A stretch of 64,000 nt of DNA from Escherichia phage ph0011. This document shows, piece after piece, positions 8,463 through 21,792 of the stretch. A model generated the notes under the pieces. That model saw only the letters and a list, made by a program, of their open reading frames with translations, ran no database searches and had not been told where the DNA came from. Position numbers and translations under genes: made by a program. The stretch lies in sequence record OP557969.1; one strand, 5' to 3'. Numbering within the stretch: the stretch's first letter is position 1; each line of letters starts with the position of its first letter.

Positions 8463-10664
8463 ATGGCTGGAAATACAAGTGATTACCTACTACAACAGTT
8501 GGTTAATCAAACTAAAGATAACAATGATAGCTTGAGTGCTATACGTGAGTTATTGGCTGAAAATATAAAAAATGACAGAAAGAAATCCGGTTCTAAAAGT
8601 AGAAAACATAACGAAAGAACTTCATCTGGTTCTGGGAATCGTGGTTCTAAAGCTAATAATGTAGGTGGTGGTAAAGAATTTGGTAAAATATTCAAATCAT
8701 TATCATCTGAAGTATCAAATGTTGGAAAAACAATGATGAGTACATCTGCTAACGTCAGCAACGTTGTCAATTCACTGGGAATGAGTGCATCTTCATTTGC
8801 TGGTTCACTGGCAATGATTCCTGGGCCAGTTGGTGCAGCCGCTACTGCTTTTAAAATGGTCGCTGACGTTGGTATGGCAGTATATAATGTATTAAACGCA
8901 CAACTTGAAGTTTATAATAGAATAAACAGTGCTGGTGTTGCCCTATCTGAAGGTTATGGTTCCATATTAAAAGGTGCAGGTGCATCAATGATGAGTGTTG
9001 ATGCATTTGGTGAAGCATTACAAACACATAGTTCCGTTGTTGCACAATTGGATGGAGCATATGGTGATGGTGTTTCCACCTTTGGTAAATTATTGGGTAC
9101 TGTACAACAGGCACAAAATCAATTGGGTTTATATGGAGTTTCACAAAAAACACTAACTGATTTAACTGCACGTAATATTAAATTCCAAAAGCAATTTGGT
9201 GGAAGAGAAATGTTACGTAGTATGGATCAAGCAAAAAGTACTGAACAGTTTATCATGAGCATGACTAAGTTCAGTAAAAGTATGGGTGAGTCGGTTGATG
9301 CACTATTAAATAAAACACAAAACTTAGATAAATCATTAGATACACGTTCAATGCAAATAGCATTACAGAACTATTCTGGGCTATCAGGTAAAGCAGCAGT
9401 CGAAACGTCAAAAGCATTTAACGAAGCTGCTGCGAGTATGGGTGATGCTGGTGCAGATTTCCTACGTTTAATTTCACATCGTTTAACCATTGGTGGTGTA
9501 CCAGATGATTTATTGACTCCAGTACTTAATCAATTTGCTGACTTAGGTGAGAACTTGGTACGTAGTGGTGTTACTGATTCGCAAGAAATTCGCCGCCAGC
9601 AGATAGAATTTGTTAAAAAGAACAAAGAATTAATAAAGCAAGATTTATTACATCAGATTAATTTAGGAAACACTACTGCTGCAATCTTCAACCAACAACT
9701 ACTCGATATGGAAGCTGCGATAAACGATCCTAAGAGTCAACCAGCAGATAAATTAACACAATTCACTGATAGATTCAACAGATGGATTAGTAAAGAGTTT
9801 ACTGGACCATTTAATAAAATGTATGCAGATACACAAAATTCTATTGCGGATTACCTTACTGATATTGCTGATAGTACTGATGGTGCATGGGAATTCATCG
9901 GAAAGTTAGCACTTGATGGTTTTGGTTTGGTTCCTATTGCGAAAGATGCCGTTGTGTATTTGGATAGGATCGGTGGTGAGTTTGAGCAGTGGTTAGAAGG
10001 GTTAGGTACTGAAATTTTTGGTAGTGGATATAATAAAGTTTCAGAAGCATTCAATAGTTTTATGAATAACTTAATGGATTTACCTGGAAAACTATGGGAT
10101 TCTGTAAAAGGTTGGTTTGGTGGTTCGAAAGATAAACCAAAAGTTGATAATAATTCAGTCACCGATGGAGTAGAAAAAGTTAATAGCTACTTCGAAGATA
10201 AAATGAATTCATTTGGGGATTATATTTCCAATTCATTTGACCATTTTTTGAAATGGAATTCAAGTAGGAACTTTAAACAACCTAAACCACTTGATGGTTC
10301 AGTTGCAGAAAAACTTATTGGTACTGGTATTGATAGTAAACCCACAACAACTACTAGAATCGAAAAATCTGAACACGTTGCTCCGTATGTTACCATTACA
10401 CCAAAAACTTTTGATAAGTCAGCATGGGGACCGAATGAACCGCCAGTTCAAGCTCAACCGGACGATAATGAGGCTATGAAAGCGATGATAAATAATGGTA
10501 GTAGTATGGCAAATATTAATAATAATGCCACAATATCAGAAGATATGAAAGAGTTACTTAAAAAACTTGCTGATGTTAACGAGCAATCACTATCTGCTGT
10601 ACAACAGACAAATAACTATCTAAGAACTATCTCTGAAAACACTCAAGGTGAGAGAAACAGTTAA
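8463..10664 (+). CDS. Putative tail tape-measure / baseplate hub protein (gp29-like)
   Basis: 733 aa, Ala/Ser/Gly/Met-rich with low-complexity segments, typical of tape-measure proteins; call rests on composition and position only. Confidence 0.3.
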   Translation: MAGNTSDYLLQQLVNQTKDNNDSLSAIRELLAENIKNDRKKSGSKSRKHNERTSSGSGNRGSKANNVGGGKEFGKIFKSLSSEVSNVGKTMMSTSANVSNVVNSLGMSASSFAGSLAMIPGPVGAAATAFKMVADVGMAVYNVLNAQLEVYNRINSAGVALSEGYGSILKGAGASMMSVDAFGEALQTHSSVVAQLDGAYGDGVSTFGKLLGTVQQAQNQLGLYGVSQKTLTDLTARNIKFQKQFGGREMLRSMDQAKSTEQFIMSMTKFSKSMGESVDALLNKTQNLDKSLDTRSMQIALQNYSGLSGKAAVETSKAFNEAAASMGDAGADFLRLISHRLTIGGVPDDLLTPVLNQFADLGENLVRSGVTDSQEIRRQQIEFVKKNKELIKQDLLHQINLGNTTAAIFNQQLLDMEAAINDPKSQPADKLTQFTDRFNRWISKEFTGPFNKMYADTQNSIADYLTDIADSTDGAWEFIGKLALDGFGLVPIAKDAVVYLDRIGGEFEQWLEGLGTEIFGSGYNKVSEAFNSFMNNLMDLPGKLWDSVKGWFGGSKDKPKVDNNSVTDGVEKVNSYFEDKMNSFGDYISNSFDHFLKWNSSRNFKQPKPLDGSVAEKLIGTGIDSKPTTTTRIEKSEHVAPYVTITPKTFDKSAWGPNEPPVQAQPDDNEAMKAMINNGSSMANINNNATISEDMKELLKKLADVNEQSLSAVQQTNNYLRTISENTQGERNS

Positions 10665-12805: not shown

Positions 12806-13654
12806 ATGGAGGATATAATGGCGAATTTAAAACTACTACAAGAAGCAATTGCGGCGTTTGCAAATGGCGAGCAAGATATTGCTGATAAAAAAATGCGTAA
12901 GTATTTTGTTGAACAAGCACAAGAAATTAACAAAAAGCTAGAAGAAAGCATGGAAGACGAAGAAAGCATTGAAGATGAAGACGTCGAAGATGAAGAAAAG
13001 CTTGATGAAGATTTTGACGTACAACCAGATGCAGGTCTTAATGCAGAAATCCAATACACCCTTGGTGAAGAAGATGAAAGTGCAGAAGACGAAGTTGAGA
13101 TTTCTGCTGATGCAGATGCCGATGGTGAAGATGATGTTGATGTTGATGTAAAAGCAGATGCTGAAGTTCCTTCTGAAGATCAATGGGAATCAATTCAAGA
13201 TGCTTTCCGTGGTCTACAGCAAATGTTTGATGAAATTGGTGATGGTGAAGTTGACCTAGACTCCGATGAAGAAGTCGAAGATAGTGAAGAAGAAGTTGGT
13301 GTTGATGGTGATGATGAATTCGCTGATATTGAATTTGGTGATGAAAAAATCGGTGAATCATTCAAACTAGAAAAAGTTGCACCAGTTGATAAGAAAGAAA
13401 AAGCAGGAACTCATACTAAATCACCAGTTGCACCAGAAGCTAAATCACCAGTAGATGGTGTAGAACCAGTTAAATTCGCTAAGAAAACTGATCAAGCACC
13501 ACTAGTTGATCTTGATGATAAATCTGTTCTACCAAAAGATAATCTAGATCTTGGTAAAAACGCTCGTGGTGAAATGAAAGATGTCAAAGAACCAAAAACT
13601 ACTGCATCTAAGTCCAAATCACCACTAAGCAAAGCACAACCTAAACTAAAATAA
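12806..13654 (+). CDS. Highly acidic prohead core / internal protein-like
   Basis: Long Glu/Asp-rich N-terminal half and Lys/Pro-rich C-terminus with repeated KSPV; position between portal and protease. Confidence 0.35.
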   Translation: MEDIMANLKLLQEAIAAFANGEQDIADKKMRKYFVEQAQEINKKLEESMEDEESIEDEDVEDEEKLDEDFDVQPDAGLNAEIQYTLGEEDESAEDEVEISADADADGEDDVDVDVKADAEVPSEDQWESIQDAFRGLQQMFDEIGDGEVDLDSDEEVEDSEEEVGVDGDDEFADIEFGDEKIGESFKLEKVAPVDKKEKAGTHTKSPVAPEAKSPVDGVEPVKFAKKTDQAPLVDLDDKSVLPKDNLDLGKNARGEMKDVKEPKTTASKSKSPLSKAQPKLK

Positions 13655-16889: not shown

Positions 16890-18488
16890 ATGCTTGGTGA
16901 AATCAAACAGTTTTTGAAGACGAAAAAGTTAAGAGGTGTAAAATCTGCACTTCAAGCAAAACCATTATATGTTGATTACTTAAAAGAAATTTATGGTGAT
17001 ATCGAACTGAATGTTATCATTTACATGGTATTGAATGATATTAAAGAAATTCCAAAAGCAAAATGTGGTAACGATGTAAAGTTTGTTAATTTAATTGAGG
17101 GATTCAGTGACAGATGTAATCTACCGTTTCAGGGAAAAAATAAATGTAAAGTTTGTTCTGTAATGATTTCTGAAAAAAGAAAAAGTACATACAAGAATAA
17201 AACTGGGTATGATAATCCCGGACAGAATCCAGACGTTCGTGACAAGATGTCAAGAACTAATATTAATCGTTACGGAACTACTGTTCCCCAGCAGACCGAT
17301 GTTGTCAAAAAACGTTCAATTGAGACAAATCTTCTTAAGTACGGAGTTGAACATCCCTCAATGTTGGAAGAAAACAAAGAGAAACGCCAAAAAACTGTTT
17401 TTGAAAAGTATGGTGTAGATAATGTACTTAAAACTACACATAAACGCCTTGAAGAACGTTATATGAATTTCAAGAAAAAATATGAATATTCTGGAAAATA
17501 TACATTACTTAGTTCAATTGAAGAGTATGATTCTTCTGTTAATGGTGTTAAAAGTATTCTTTTATGGAAATGTAATACTTGCAACAATACTTTCAATAAA
17601 GTTGCACCGTGTTTAAGATGTCCTAAATGTGAACCATACTCTTCCAGTACTGAAGAAGTTGAATTATATGAATATATTTCATCAATCTATGACGGTGTAA
17701 TTATCCAGAATAGTAGGAATATTATCACAGGTAATGAGATTGATATTTTCATTCCAGAACTGAAACTTGGTATTGAGTTCAATGGTGAGTACTGGCACAG
17801 AGACGAAGTGCGTGGTAATAATTATCATCAGAGCAAATATATTCGTATGAAGGAAAATGGCAACAAACTTATTACTATATATAGTAATGAATGGCGTAAT
17901 AAAACTGACATCGTTAAGCGTAGATTAAAAAGCATTTTAAATACTGATAATAGAGTGTACGCTCGTAAGTGTACTATCGGTTTAGTTCAGAATGATGTAT
18001 GTGATGAGTTTTTGAATACATATCATATACAGGGTAAGTGTAGTTCTTCGATTCGCGTAGGTCTGTATTTGGAAACAGAACTTGTTGCAGTAATGACATT
18101 CGGTAAACCAAGATTTAACAAAGAATATGAATATGAACTACTCCGTTATTGTTCCAAAGATACAGTGGTTGGTGGTGCTTCAAAACTGTTAAAATATTTC
18201 GAAATTACACATGTTCCAAAATCTTTGATATCTTATGCTGATATGAATTGGAGTTCTGGTAATCTATATGAAGCAATTGGATTTCAATTTGTTGAAATGA
18301 CGAAACCTGGATATTTCTATTATGATAAAAAAACAGAAACCACATATTCCAGATACCAATGTCAAAAGCAAAAACTAATATCAAAGTTTGGATTTCCTAA
18401 CACAATGACAGAGAATGAAATGACACGATCACTTGGTTATTACAAAATATATGATTGTGGTAATTTAGTATATAAAAAAGAATACTAA
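16890..18488 (+). CDS. Large free-standing nuclease-like protein, paralog 1 (putative homing endonuclease)
   Basis: N-terminal Cys cluster, repeated (R/K)YGV(E/D) module, central DIFIPELKLGIEFNGEYWH motif resembling Vsr/DUF559 PD-(D/E)xK cores, conserved C-terminal domain; paralog of 51760..53508. Confidence 0.45.
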   Translation: MLGEIKQFLKTKKLRGVKSALQAKPLYVDYLKEIYGDIELNVIIYMVLNDIKEIPKAKCGNDVKFVNLIEGFSDRCNLPFQGKNKCKVCSVMISEKRKSTYKNKTGYDNPGQNPDVRDKMSRTNINRYGTTVPQQTDVVKKRSIETNLLKYGVEHPSMLEENKEKRQKTVFEKYGVDNVLKTTHKRLEERYMNFKKKYEYSGKYTLLSSIEEYDSSVNGVKSILLWKCNTCNNTFNKVAPCLRCPKCEPYSSSTEEVELYEYISSIYDGVIIQNSRNIITGNEIDIFIPELKLGIEFNGEYWHRDEVRGNNYHQSKYIRMKENGNKLITIYSNEWRNKTDIVKRRLKSILNTDNRVYARKCTIGLVQNDVCDEFLNTYHIQGKCSSSIRVGLYLETELVAVMTFGKPRFNKEYEYELLRYCSKDTVVGGASKLLKYFEITHVPKSLISYADMNWSSGNLYEAIGFQFVEMTKPGYFYYDKKTETTYSRYQCQKQKLISKFGFPNTMTENEMTRSLGYYKIYDCGNLVYKKEY

Positions 18489-18867: not shown

Positions 18868-18906
18868 TAGATAAATATCTCCATATTAATGATGGAGATT
18901 GAATCT

Positions 18907-19215
18907 ATGTCACAAATATGTTATGTTATCATAAATTCTGCGTGGCCTGATTATGTTAAGATTGGGTTCACATCAAAATCCGAAATGACTGAGCGTTTGA
19001 GAACATATCAGACAGCTACACCTTTCAGAGATTTTGAGGTATACCATGAGGTGTATTTTGATGATGCACGTTTGGCTGAAAAAGAAATTCATAAAAGACT
19101 AAAGCAAATGAATGCAATTAGACAACCGAACACTGAGTGGTTTAAAATGTCTAAAAAGATCGCCGCAAACATTATTGACTCCATAAGGGATGATATGGAT
19201 AATGATATGTTATAG
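18907..19215 (+). CDS. T5orf172 / GIY-YIG-like domain protein
   Basis: Pattern CYVIIN...YVKIGFTS...RL..YQT...EWFK fits the T5orf172 domain consensus; GGAG precedes the ATG at 18907 (the track ORF starts at 18889). Confidence 0.45.
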   Translation: MSQICYVIINSAWPDYVKIGFTSKSEMTERLRTYQTATPFRDFEVYHEVYFDDARLAEKEIHKRLKQMNAIRQPNTEWFKMSKKIAANIIDSIRDDMDNDML

Positions 19216-19255: not shown

Positions 19256-20869
19256 ATGAGCATAAGTTTTAATAACCCACTGGATACAATGACCAGTACT
19301 GGTGCTAATGGTTCTTTGGAACTAATAGTGCTTGGTGGTACACCAACTAACCCAAGACCTATTCGTTTTAATTCATCATCAGTTATTATGCCAGTAAAAA
19401 CATTACCGACTGGTGAACAAGGTGCAATGGTTTTTGATAGAAACGAATTAGTGTTAAAGTATCATAATGGTACTAGTTGGATTGCAATATACGACAATGA
19501 TACTATTTTAGAACCAATTAGGGTTTCGTTGGATGAAGTAAACAGAAAATTAAACTTAAAGGTTGAAAGTGTAACATACAGTAGTAGTTCTGTTCCAAGT
19601 GCAAGTATCAGTGGAACAAACTTAAACATCGTATTCCCTACTGTTTCTAGTGGTGGTGGTTCAGGGCCAACTGGCCTTTATACTTCACTTAAACCTGGTG
19701 TTATCACACAGTACGCATTGACTTCTGGTCAAAACGTTGCTAGTATACGTGAACAAATGTCTGGACAAACCAATGGTCAAAATGGACGAAATGGTTCGCA
19801 AGCTGCTCCATGGAAAACATCAGATGGATGGTGCTTTGCTGATGGTATGTGGTGGCAATGGGAAGGTGAAAATGGCACAGTTACTAAACAAGTACCAAAT
19901 CTTAACAGAAACGCGTATTTAAAAGGGATATCCACATCAGGGGTAACCAAAACGGATAGTGTTATTGGGAGCAGTGGTAACATTAGCGGAACTGTTTTGA
20001 GTGTAGCACAATTGCCTTCACATTCATTTAGTTTTAGCGGAAGAACTGATGCTGCTGGTCGCCACAGCCATAGTCAAGCACTAAAAGGTATGGACCGAAG
20101 TGGTCTAAATGCGTTAACATCAAGTAATGATAACGGTATACCAACAGTAATTAGTAACATTAATGAAGCACCAGACCATGTTCACTCATTTAGTGGAAAC
20201 ACAAACACACTTGGTGGGAATCAGCCACATTATCATGGTATCAGTAATGTTGATGTTGAGCACTTTAACGTGGCATATTTATATAACATTGCAGAATCAA
20301 ACGTAGCACTGAGTGAAAAAGTAGCAAATACGCGTTATGTACTGAAATCAGGTGATACAATGACTGGTTCTTTAACTATTGCCAACAGTGCATCTATTAA
20401 GTCTAATGATACATCATTAGTTCTATATTTCCGTAACGCAAGCGGCGGTGAACGTGCGGCTGTTTACCATAATTCATCAAACAACACGTTGCGATTACGT
20501 TCCGGTGGTGCTGAAGTAGCAGTAAACTCTTCAGGTAACTTGTCTGCTCCTTCATTAACTGTTTCTAATAATTCAGCTACTGTTGGTGGTAAAAATATTG
20601 TTCGCACTATCAATGGTACAGCGGCTGATGGTAATGGTAATGTTTCATTGCAAATTAATTCGAATAACGTACAAAGTATTCGTTTGAGTGCAAGAATTGA
20701 AACAAGTAAAATTCCAGATTCTTCATGGACATACGCACCTGAAGGTGCACTCATGGATGGTGTATGGATTTCAGTGAACGGTAGTTCAGGAACTCATTTG
20801 GAACGTATTAGCTATCGTTATATTCAAATGCAGGTAAATGGCAATTGGGAAACGGTACGACAACAATAA
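19256..20869 (+). CDS. Tail fiber protein with HxH metal-binding motifs
   Basis: Ser/Gly/Thr/Asn-rich 537-aa protein; three HxH motifs (RHSHS, DHVHS, PHYHG at 20058..20238); followed by a tail fiber assembly gene. Confidence 0.5.
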   Translation: MSISFNNPLDTMTSTGANGSLELIVLGGTPTNPRPIRFNSSSVIMPVKTLPTGEQGAMVFDRNELVLKYHNGTSWIAIYDNDTILEPIRVSLDEVNRKLNLKVESVTYSSSSVPSASISGTNLNIVFPTVSSGGGSGPTGLYTSLKPGVITQYALTSGQNVASIREQMSGQTNGQNGRNGSQAAPWKTSDGWCFADGMWWQWEGENGTVTKQVPNLNRNAYLKGISTSGVTKTDSVIGSSGNISGTVLSVAQLPSHSFSFSGRTDAAGRHSHSQALKGMDRSGLNALTSSNDNGIPTVISNINEAPDHVHSFSGNTNTLGGNQPHYHGISNVDVEHFNVAYLYNIAESNVALSEKVANTRYVLKSGDTMTGSLTIANSASIKSNDTSLVLYFRNASGGERAAVYHNSSNNTLRLRSGGAEVAVNSSGNLSAPSLTVSNNSATVGGKNIVRTINGTAADGNGNVSLQINSNNVQSIRLSARIETSKIPDSSWTYAPEGALMDGVWISVNGSSGTHLERISYRYIQMQVNGNWETVRQQ

Positions 20870-20875
20870 GGAAAT

Positions 20876-21391
20876 GTGCAAATGCAACTAACTAATTTTA
20901 AGATGTACGATAAAGAAGATGGAAATCCAAATTCTTTGTATATGATGTCCGATGAAGGCATGGATTGGTATGAATCTCGTGGTCTGTTTGACATTAACAA
21001 AGCCAAATTTATGTATGATGCCAATGGATTGATAGTTTCTGCATCATATGACATTTATGATCTAGTACCTTTGGGGTTTAGTGTTTCTGAAATTGAGTAC
21101 GATGGTGACGTTAACAAACTTTATGGTATGATTTATGATGGTAAAACTATCAAGGAGTATGTAGAAACCAAAGAAGAAAAGATTGAACGTCTTAAGATTG
21201 AATTGGAAAAATTAAAATACTCTGCAATTCAACAGCTTGGGCATTTGAAAACAGCTATGGATCTTGAGTTAGCATCAGATGAAGAAGCTGTATTGTTTGC
21301 AAAATTAAAAGAGTATGTAACACAATTGTCGTCAATTAAACCAGTAGATATGGTCAAAAAAACATTTTCATTTCCAGTCAAACCTGAATAA
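20876..21391 (+). CDS. Tail fiber assembly chaperone (Tfa / gp38-like)
   Basis: 171 aa immediately downstream of the fiber gene; composition and C-terminal helical region typical of Tfa proteins. Confidence 0.45.
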   Translation: MQMQLTNFKMYDKEDGNPNSLYMMSDEGMDWYESRGLFDINKAKFMYDANGLIVSASYDIYDLVPLGFSVSEIEYDGDVNKLYGMIYDGKTIKEYVETKEEKIERLKIELEKLKYSAIQQLGHLKTAMDLELASDEEAVLFAKLKEYVTQLSSIKPVDMVKKTFSFPVKPE

Positions 21392-21427
21392 AAATTGAGA
21401 CAGCACTGAAATGTATGATACAATTTA

Positions 21428-21464
21428 GTCATCTCACCAGCGGTGGTGAGGTGACATTTTTTTT
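21428..21464 (+). terminator. Rho-independent terminator after the tail fiber module
   Basis: 11-bp stem (GTCATCTCACC / GGTGAGGTGAC, one G-U pair), 5-nt loop, then A-TTTTTTTT. Confidence 0.65.
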
Positions 21465-21474
21465 CAAAACAAAC

Positions 21475-21792
21475 ATGGAGAAATACAAAATGGCTAAATC
21501 CAAAAAAGAAGTTAAAGTTGAAATTCGTGATCTAAACGATGAACAGCGTAAACGTCTCGGTGATGCACTTAACAACATCGTAGTCCAACTAACTTTTATC
21601 GATGATACTAAAGCATCTTTATCTGATTTTGTTTCTAGTGTTTCAGACGAACTTGGTATTGATGCATCCGATATCAAACAAGCGGCACAACGTATGTACA
21701 AAGGTGATTACTTTGACAAACAAAGTAAACTAGATAATATTGAAACTATTCTAAGTGTTACCAACAATCTTCCACAAGCAGACGATTACTAA
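21475..21792 (+). CDS. Hypothetical protein
   Basis: The track ORF starts at 21415 inside the terminator hairpin; the likely true start is MEKYKMAKSKK at 21475. Confidence 0.35.
   Translation: MEKYKMAKSKKEVKVEIRDLNDEQRKRLGDALNNIVVQLTFIDDTKASLSDFVSSVSDELGIDASDIKQAAQRMYKGDYFDKQSKLDNIETILSVTNNLPQADDY

Follow-up and report, generated by a model that had tools for sequence, protein, structure and literature searches.

A tail fibre of Escherichia phage ph0011 with three HxH motifs in an internal T4 gp37-like module and a Mu gpS-like C-terminal domain

The tail fibre gene and its surroundings

The window, a 64,000-nucleotide stretch of DNA from Escherichia phage ph0011 (OP557969.1), contains a tail fibre gene that lies between head genes (portal, protease, scaffold, and major capsid protein) and DNA polymerase. 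The gene and the first part of its product are located as follows.

19256..20869, + strand, stop included: tail fibre gene, 537 aa (ORF, phrog_13229, 121Q gp607 identity)
19256..19678, + strand: N-terminal part of the fibre, aa 1-141 (AF2 secondary structure, pLDDT, family conservation)

The 537-aa protein encoded by this ORF is a full-length match to phrog_13229 with an E of 1.9e-263. The DNA of the segment is 87% identical to that of Asteriusvirus jumbo coliphages, such as 121Q, PBECO4, phAPEC6, and SHEFM2K, and the fibre gene shares 87% nucleotide identity with 121Q gp607, a "tail fiber". In 121Q and its relatives the fibre gene and the gene downstream of it carry prior annotations as a tail fibre and a tail fibre assembly protein. 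CBB_260, the orthologous protein of phage CBB, is present in virions as determined by mass spectrometry, and the phAPEC6 orthologue is absent from the phAPEC6 virion MS list. The original prediction of a tail fibre protein is borne out by phrog_13229, the 121Q annotation, and the presence of CBB_260 in virions.

Searches of PDB sequences with the single fibre protein found nothing relevant, and a PDB search with the fibre family profile returned only a spurious nanobody match. Pfam assigns no family to the protein, and its sub-threshold matches to Pfam YmaF probably reflect the HxH repeats only. The AF2 model of aa 1-141 features a beta domain, a helix at 81-99, a small beta domain, and a Gly/Ser linker at 131-141. 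This N-terminal part is presumed to attach the fibre to the virion.

Immediately 5' of the fibre gene is a 108-aa T5orf172/MUG113-domain ORF (18889-19215, + strand) that is GIY-YIG-like and belongs to phrog_15085, and this ORF keeps its slot in every relative examined (CBB_259, GAP32, and loci L005-L007). A 532-aa homing-endonuclease-like ORF (16890-18488, + strand) is located between the major capsid gene and the fibre gene. It matches phrog_3339 with an E of 5e-136 and Pfam DUF7487, and features a weak Mom-like match at its C-terminus. What fills this slot varies among relatives: 121Q has a 365-aa hypothetical protein there, L006 a 309-aa DUF723 protein, and GAP32 and CBB have two small ORFs. 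The slot looks like an insertion site for mobile elements.

The three HxH motifs

The fibre, which has 11 His in total, contains exactly three HxH motifs, and these are preceded by a degenerate fourth copy.

20021..20029, + strand: degenerate motif H256-S-F258 in LPSHSFSFSG; aligns with T4 gp37 H915/H917
20063..20071, + strand: HxH 1, RHSHS, H270-S-H272; aligns with gp37 H929/H931; kept in 68 of 109 homologues
20177..20185, + strand: HxH 2, DHVHS, H308-V-H310; aligns with gp37 H966/H968; kept in 68 of 109 homologues
20228..20236, + strand: HxH 3, PHYHG, H325-Y-H327; invariant site, 109 of 109 homologues

In 100,000 shuffles of the fibre's own sequence, at least three HxH motifs occurred in 0.09%, and three HxH within 60 residues occurred in 0.01% (~1e-4). 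The fibre gene is the sole real gene with at least two HxH among the window ORFs of at least 100 aa. The other ORFs with at least two HxH are the antisense shadow ORFs 13038-13361 (- strand) and 8851-9171 (- strand). They lie inside larger + strand genes, feature 29 and 15 His, respectively, and contain numerous HxH; almost certainly they do not encode proteins and are an artefact of codon usage on the opposite strand.

The presence of RHSHS, DHVHS, and PHYHG in the fibre was correctly predicted, and the predicted interval, 20058-20238, brackets the motifs to 1-2 nt. Their assignment to the C-terminal region is inaccurate, since the motifs are located mid-protein, at 50-61% of the fibre length, and 210 residues follow the last one. 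Published accounts of 121Q, PBECO4, phAPEC6, CBB, and Sharanji consist of annotation and MS data only and leave the HxH motifs unmentioned.

Relationship to the T4 gp37 and gp12 tips

The needle of T4 gp37 holds seven iron ions along its length by means of seven HxH motifs (PMC6957217). His929 and His931 are iron ligands and their substitution with Ala is lethal, and the tip, residues 933-959, binds LPS and OmpC (PMC6957217). At the head, the gp37 chain turns back on itself and runs to the collar again, forming a six-stranded needle (PMC12609058). Fe(II) is bound by HxH motifs in pyocin fibres and in phage spikes, and Zn is bound in refolded gp12; the roles proposed for such a metal site are to provide a reference point for folding and to stiffen the fibre (PMC6116203). 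Three further elements of the window fibre can be related to these proteins.

19679..20020, + strand: collar-like domain, aa 142-255 (PGVITQY...DGWCFADG...VPNLNRNAYLKG...LSVAQLP)
20072..20176, + strand: 35-aa loop, aa 273-307, between HxH 1 and 2; counterpart of the gp37 distal head
20252..20296, + strand: DVEHFNVAYLYNIAE, aa 333-347, conserved; counterpart of the C-terminal collar-return strand of gp37/gp12

An hhalign comparison aligned aa 254-321 of the fibre family with T4 gp37 913-979 with a prob of 75-82% and an E of about 1e-5, and controls with the reversed gp37 C-terminus and 30 shuffles never gave a prob above 0.7%. The alignment pairs H256/F258 with gp37 H915/H917, H270/H272 with H929/H931, and H308/H310 with H966/H968. 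The loop at 273-307 (35 aa), which has a model pLDDT below 50, is aligned with gp37 932-965 (34 aa). A 5-way alignment that includes gp37 and three distant relatives features H256, H270, H272, H308, H310, and H325 as invariant columns. HxH 3 aligns with an HxH on the ascending strand of gp37 and, in collar proteins, with the motif GGxxH(E/L)(N/H). Additionally, direct sequence comparison revealed a likeness between DVEHFNVAYLYNIAE and the final strands of gp37 (NIAFNYIVRLA) and gp12 (NISLNYIIKV).

A collar-type fold precedes the needle in the fibre model, and the PDB matches of a model of aa 142-352 are all fibre tips of gp37/gp12 type. Proteins named as related to this region are collar protein C24, a PVC fibre, and T4 gp12 (three times). 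The Collar (PF07484) and Gp10_C (PF21939) HMMs gave no match at E ≤1 to the window fibre or to 25 family members. The gp12 sequence has no direct match to the window fibre, and hhalign of the fibre family against T4 gp12 and gp34 found nothing. The family profile does match proteins that are Collar- or Gp10_C-positive, such as P0156 and P0147, which is a transitive link only. The relationship is therefore one of fold and motif and does not amount to membership of Pfam Collar. A profile search of 1.84 billion representatives returned 368 relatives at E ≤1e-3, and those sampled carry Pfam Collar or Gp10_C. The order common to the sampled relatives is a collar, LPxHxH, GxHxH, a variable loop, GxHxHTF, GGxxH, and a terminal strand ending in YI.

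The proposed kinship with the metal-coordinating HxH motifs of T4-type fibres is upheld in that the region shares homology with the needle of gp37, in which HxH motifs bind iron (PMC6957217, PMC6116203). Alignment with gp37/gp12 tips, which had been suggested as a check, succeeded for gp37 at the prob given above and yielded nothing by hhalign for gp12. The T4 gp37 tip (PDB 2XGF: collar, HxH needle, and head) features seven HxH compared to three and one degenerate copy here, and it ends the chain, whereas the module of the window fibre is internal with 190 residues beyond it. The sequence similarity of the needle region to gp37 is confined to ~65 residues, and a homologue of gp38 is absent here. 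The receptor-binding domain of T4 gp12 (1OCY/1H6W) has a single HxH, unlike the window fibre. Gp60 of Pseudomonas phage Pa223 (PDB 9NXK) is a 215-aa podophage fibre that ends at its tip, and the tip itself was modelled with AlphaFold2.

Conservation of the needle module

The 138 fibre homologues that were gathered are all on contigs typical of 350-kb RaK2/GAP32/121Q-like phages, and 109 of them were aligned. These homologues feature two alternative cassettes in the region of ~aa 256-322. The type A cassette, which is found in 67 sequences including the window fibre, has HxF at 256/258 and HxH at 270, 308, and 325. The type B cassette, found in 41 sequences including those of GAP32, CBB, XbC2, RaK2-like, Erwinia, and Yersinia phages, has an intact HxH at 256/258 followed by an insert of its own (~65 residues), and its next HxH only at 325. 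P0119 (588 aa) is the sole family member in which all four HxH are intact (aa 262, 276, 320, and 337), and it looks like an intermediate between the two types. A true HxH is found at the H256/F258 site in 42 of the 109 relatives. Each cassette type strictly retains its own set of His down to ~47% identity, which argues for function. Positions D333, V334, H336, A340, Y343, N344, I345, and A346 are invariant or near-invariant, with H336 present in 105 of the 109 aligned homologues.

The stalk and the C-terminal domain

The 190 residues that follow the collar-return strand consist of a short helix, a GDTMTG motif, a stalk, and a terminal domain.

20297..20650, + strand: stalk, aa 348-465, with helix, GDTMTG motif, and beta repeats (pLDDT 80-92)
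20651..20866, + strand: Mu gpS-like C-terminal domain, aa 466-537 (hhalign, Foldseek, phrog_4465)

Fibre residues 470-535 align with Mu gpS 439-502 in hhalign with a prob of 93% and an E of 3.4e-7. The best Foldseek match of the full-length model is 5yvq_A, the Mu fibre-chaperone complex (E 1.1e-4), and 8ju3 is also matched. Phage Mu gpS/gpU (PDB 5YVQ, 8JU3) have the same gene order, a fibre followed by a tail-fibre assembly protein (TFA), and the C-terminal 66 residues of the window fibre align to gpS. However, Mu gpS features no HxH and no collar or needle module, and it resembles the window fibre only in the stalk motif and at the tip. A tblastn search found that the last ~110 fibre residues are common to rV5-like, PVP-SE1-like, and other phages, and in some relatives the Mu-like C-terminal domain is replaced by Gp53-like_C or Peptidase_S74. 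The Mu gpS-like domain is the probable distal receptor-binding domain and the probable client of the chaperone.

The stalk segment KSNDTSLVLYFRNASGGERAAVYH..NTLRLRS (aa 382-419, nt 20399-20512) resembles T4 gp37 109-150 with an hhalign prob of 83.5%. It forms a further patch of similarity to gp37, apart from the needle region, and its order differs from that in T4.

The mid-protein position of the needle module is unusual. Among 126 distant relatives, 112 (89%) have at most 30 residues after the match, with a median of 15, as in gp37/gp12, and only 9 have more than 50. The module of the window fibre is not the end of the chain, as the 190 residues described above follow it. Two metagenomic proteins, P0137 (739 aa) and P0254 (346 aa), feature an internal collar-HxH module and a third, P0266 (383 aa), features two such modules in tandem, so the chain can continue after a collar-HxH module in other lineages too. 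To our knowledge, there is no known structure of a trimer that continues after a doubled-back needle.

The downstream chaperone gene

The gene directly downstream of the fibre gene is located as follows.

20876..21391, + strand: tail-fibre assembly protein, Mu gpU type, 171 aa (PF02413, phrog_136, Mu gpU BLASTP)

The ORF matches PF02413 (Caudo_TAP) with 37.7 bits against a cut-off of 22.1 (E 2.6e-9) and phrog_136 with an E of 1.6e-36, and these two matches bear out the prediction that the downstream gene is an assembly chaperone. The protein and Mu gpU share 28% identity over 156 aa (BLASTP, E 6e-16). No similarity to T4 gp38 was found, and T4 gp38 itself falls below the Caudo_TAP threshold. 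The phAPEC6 TFA is explicitly reported as undetected in phAPEC6 virions (PMC7247149).

The co-variation of the TFA with the fibre C-terminus was determined for 15 complete loci, and a scan of viral contigs supplied only 11 loci.

Mu-like fibre C-terminus, 12 loci: phrog_136 TFA directly downstream in 12
Gp53-like_C fibre C-terminus, 1 locus: phrog_136 TFA directly downstream in 0
Peptidase_S74 fibre C-terminus, 2 loci: phrog_136 TFA directly downstream in 0

The HxH module is retained in the fibre of all 15 loci. The Gp53-like_C fibre is 85% identical to the window fibre over an aligned 86% of the query, and the next conserved gene follows it directly. The TFA slot of both Peptidase_S74 loci is occupied by an unrelated 188-aa ORF (L005 5177-5743, L014 4635-5201). 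As the TFA is present in 12 of 12 loci with a Mu-like C-terminus and in none of the three others, all of which have HxH, the chaperone goes with the C-terminal domain. The HxH motifs had been taken as support for the chaperone call, and this part of the prediction fails; because the chaperone tracks the C-terminal domain, the motifs add nothing to the call, which rests on direct homology. The TFA is predicted to serve the Mu-like end domain of the fibre, with a role in binding or folding the tip.

The 188-aa ORF of the S74 loci, whose fibres carry Peptidase_S74 as an intramolecular chaperone at their end, matches the C-terminal end of phrog_26008 (profile positions 535-672 of 673). In the window, the TFA gene is followed by a 125-aa ORF (21415-21792, + strand) that matches phrog_12534 and phrog_639 (transcription-regulator-like) only from residue 26-28. 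Since the orthologues are 100-101 aa long and the match begins there, the true start is probably an ATG near 21490.

Variation in the loop and in the C-terminal domain

The least conserved stretches of the fibre family-wide are aa 271-300 and aa 466-537, and the loop at 273-307, with at least two cassette types, is the least conserved internal stretch. Among close relatives with 73-92% identity overall, the loop is 91-100% conserved and is the most conserved part of the protein, and the last 72 residues of the same relatives are only 10-56% identical. The C-terminal domain is therefore a module that is exchanged on short time scales, and the sequences compared indicate that change in the needle loop occurs solely through replacement of the cassette between more distant members. 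The suggestion that the HxH motifs mark the receptor-binding tip holds in part: the loop, which varies across the family, corresponds to the gp37 tip, but the C-terminal domain is the part that close relatives exchange.

A proposed metal-clamped needle and its alternatives

The three HxH motifs are, on balance, likely to form buried His6 metal sites in a gp37-like needle, as judged from homology. The collar and HxH needle module of gp37/gp12 type would span ~aa 145-347 of a homotrimeric fibre. The needle would be composed of two copies of a double-motif unit of ~20 residues (P-x-H-x-[H/F]-S-F-S-G-x-T-x3-G-x(1-4)-H-x-H), with one copy on either side of the 35-residue loop, and the loop at 273-307 would form the exposed head. 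By homology, each HxH, repeated in the three chains, would provide six imidazoles that enclose one octahedral metal ion buried on the three-fold axis, giving three ions per fibre and a fourth layer of His3/Phe3. The ion in this position is Fe(II) in gp37 and the pyocin fibres, and Zn in refolded gp12. The ions would keep the chains in register as they fold and make the needle stiffer. Residues 348-537 form a stalk with the Mu gpS-like domain at its end; this domain is the part that close relatives exchange, and it would be served by the Mu-type chaperone. Trimer formation, metal binding, receptor contact, and the spatial arrangement of the needle and the C-terminal stalk are features that we infer for this fibre.

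The main rival to the gp37-like needle, which is considered rather unlikely, is a shaft in which the HxH segments run one way, as in R-type pyocin fibres, where a single-iron shaft precedes a terminal lectin domain. The metal sites would then be purely structural, the loop at 273-307 would be a lateral bulge, and the Mu-like C-terminal domain would be the only receptor-binding element. Such a shaft is consistent with the 190 residues beyond the module, which include a stalk with the usual GDTMTG motif and a Mu-like tip that has a chaperone of its own, and with the S74-type relatives, in which the C-terminus must be the distal end. It is also consistent with the variation of the C-terminal domain, and not of the loop, among close relatives. 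A mid-fibre HxH iron site has precedent in the pyocin fibre (PMC6116203). The R1/R2 pyocin fibres feature a buried Fe(II) with three HxH in the mid-fibre shaft followed by a terminal receptor-binding domain (PMC6116203), a layout comparable to that proposed here; however, they have one site and no collar, show no detectable sequence similarity, and are not among the structural matches found for the window fibre. The gp37 alignment spans both the descending and the ascending units with a loop of equal length, gp37, gp12, and collar proteins have a collar-return strand that is matched by the conserved NVAYLYNIA, and the structural neighbours of the model are all tips that double back, which argues against a one-way shaft.

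An arrangement with two functional tips, in which the internal needle with its head loop at 273-307 and the C-terminal Mu-like domain are both exposed and both bind the host, is judged unlikely. The internal and tandem modules of P0137, P0254, and P0266 suggest that such an arrangement recurs. If true, the fibre could, for example, bind a primary ligand that is conserved and a secondary one that varies, and it would need a trimer topology not described so far, in which the chain, once it has doubled back, exits the collar and trimerises again.

It is very unlikely that the needle is partly vestigial, with only H325/H327 (together with H336) binding metal or being structurally essential, and with H270/H272 and H308/H310 as metal-free relics of a duplicated gp37-like unit. 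The site at 256/258 has already decayed to HxF in the clade of the window fibre and 41 of 109 relatives are without H270/H272 and H308/H310, but the 68 sequences that keep these residues do so strictly down to ~47% identity, which is unexpected for relics.

Several metallo-hydrolase families contain HxH, and RaK2-like phages have many depolymerase fibres, so a catalytic metal centre, such as that of a hydrolase acting on surface polysaccharide, was considered. This reading is highly improbable and was rejected, as no enzyme family match was found in Pfam, PHROGs, or the PDB and the structural neighbours are all non-enzymatic fibre tips. The tail spikes of RaK2 are discussed in PMC5259590. A chance cluster of HxH in a protein rich in Ser, Gly, Asn, and Thr, for which nothing more than the low complexity of the region speaks, has next to no probability and is refuted by the shuffles (~1e-4), by conservation in 109 homologues, and by the specific gp37 alignment with its negative shuffled controls.

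Implications

The HxH module is an ordinary, previously unremarked case of a well-known fibre device in a gene pair that was already annotated, and the composite architecture and topology are the only points of real curiosity. The HxH motif is no evidence for the role of an adjoining chaperone gene. The structural question that is raised is the shape of a doubled-back gp37-type needle when it is not the end of the chain. The fibre divides into engineerable parts, namely a conserved attachment region and collar, a cassette-type needle loop, and a freely swapped Mu-like tip that is accompanied by its chaperone gene, and this division is useful for host-range work on Asteriusvirus-like therapeutic phages.
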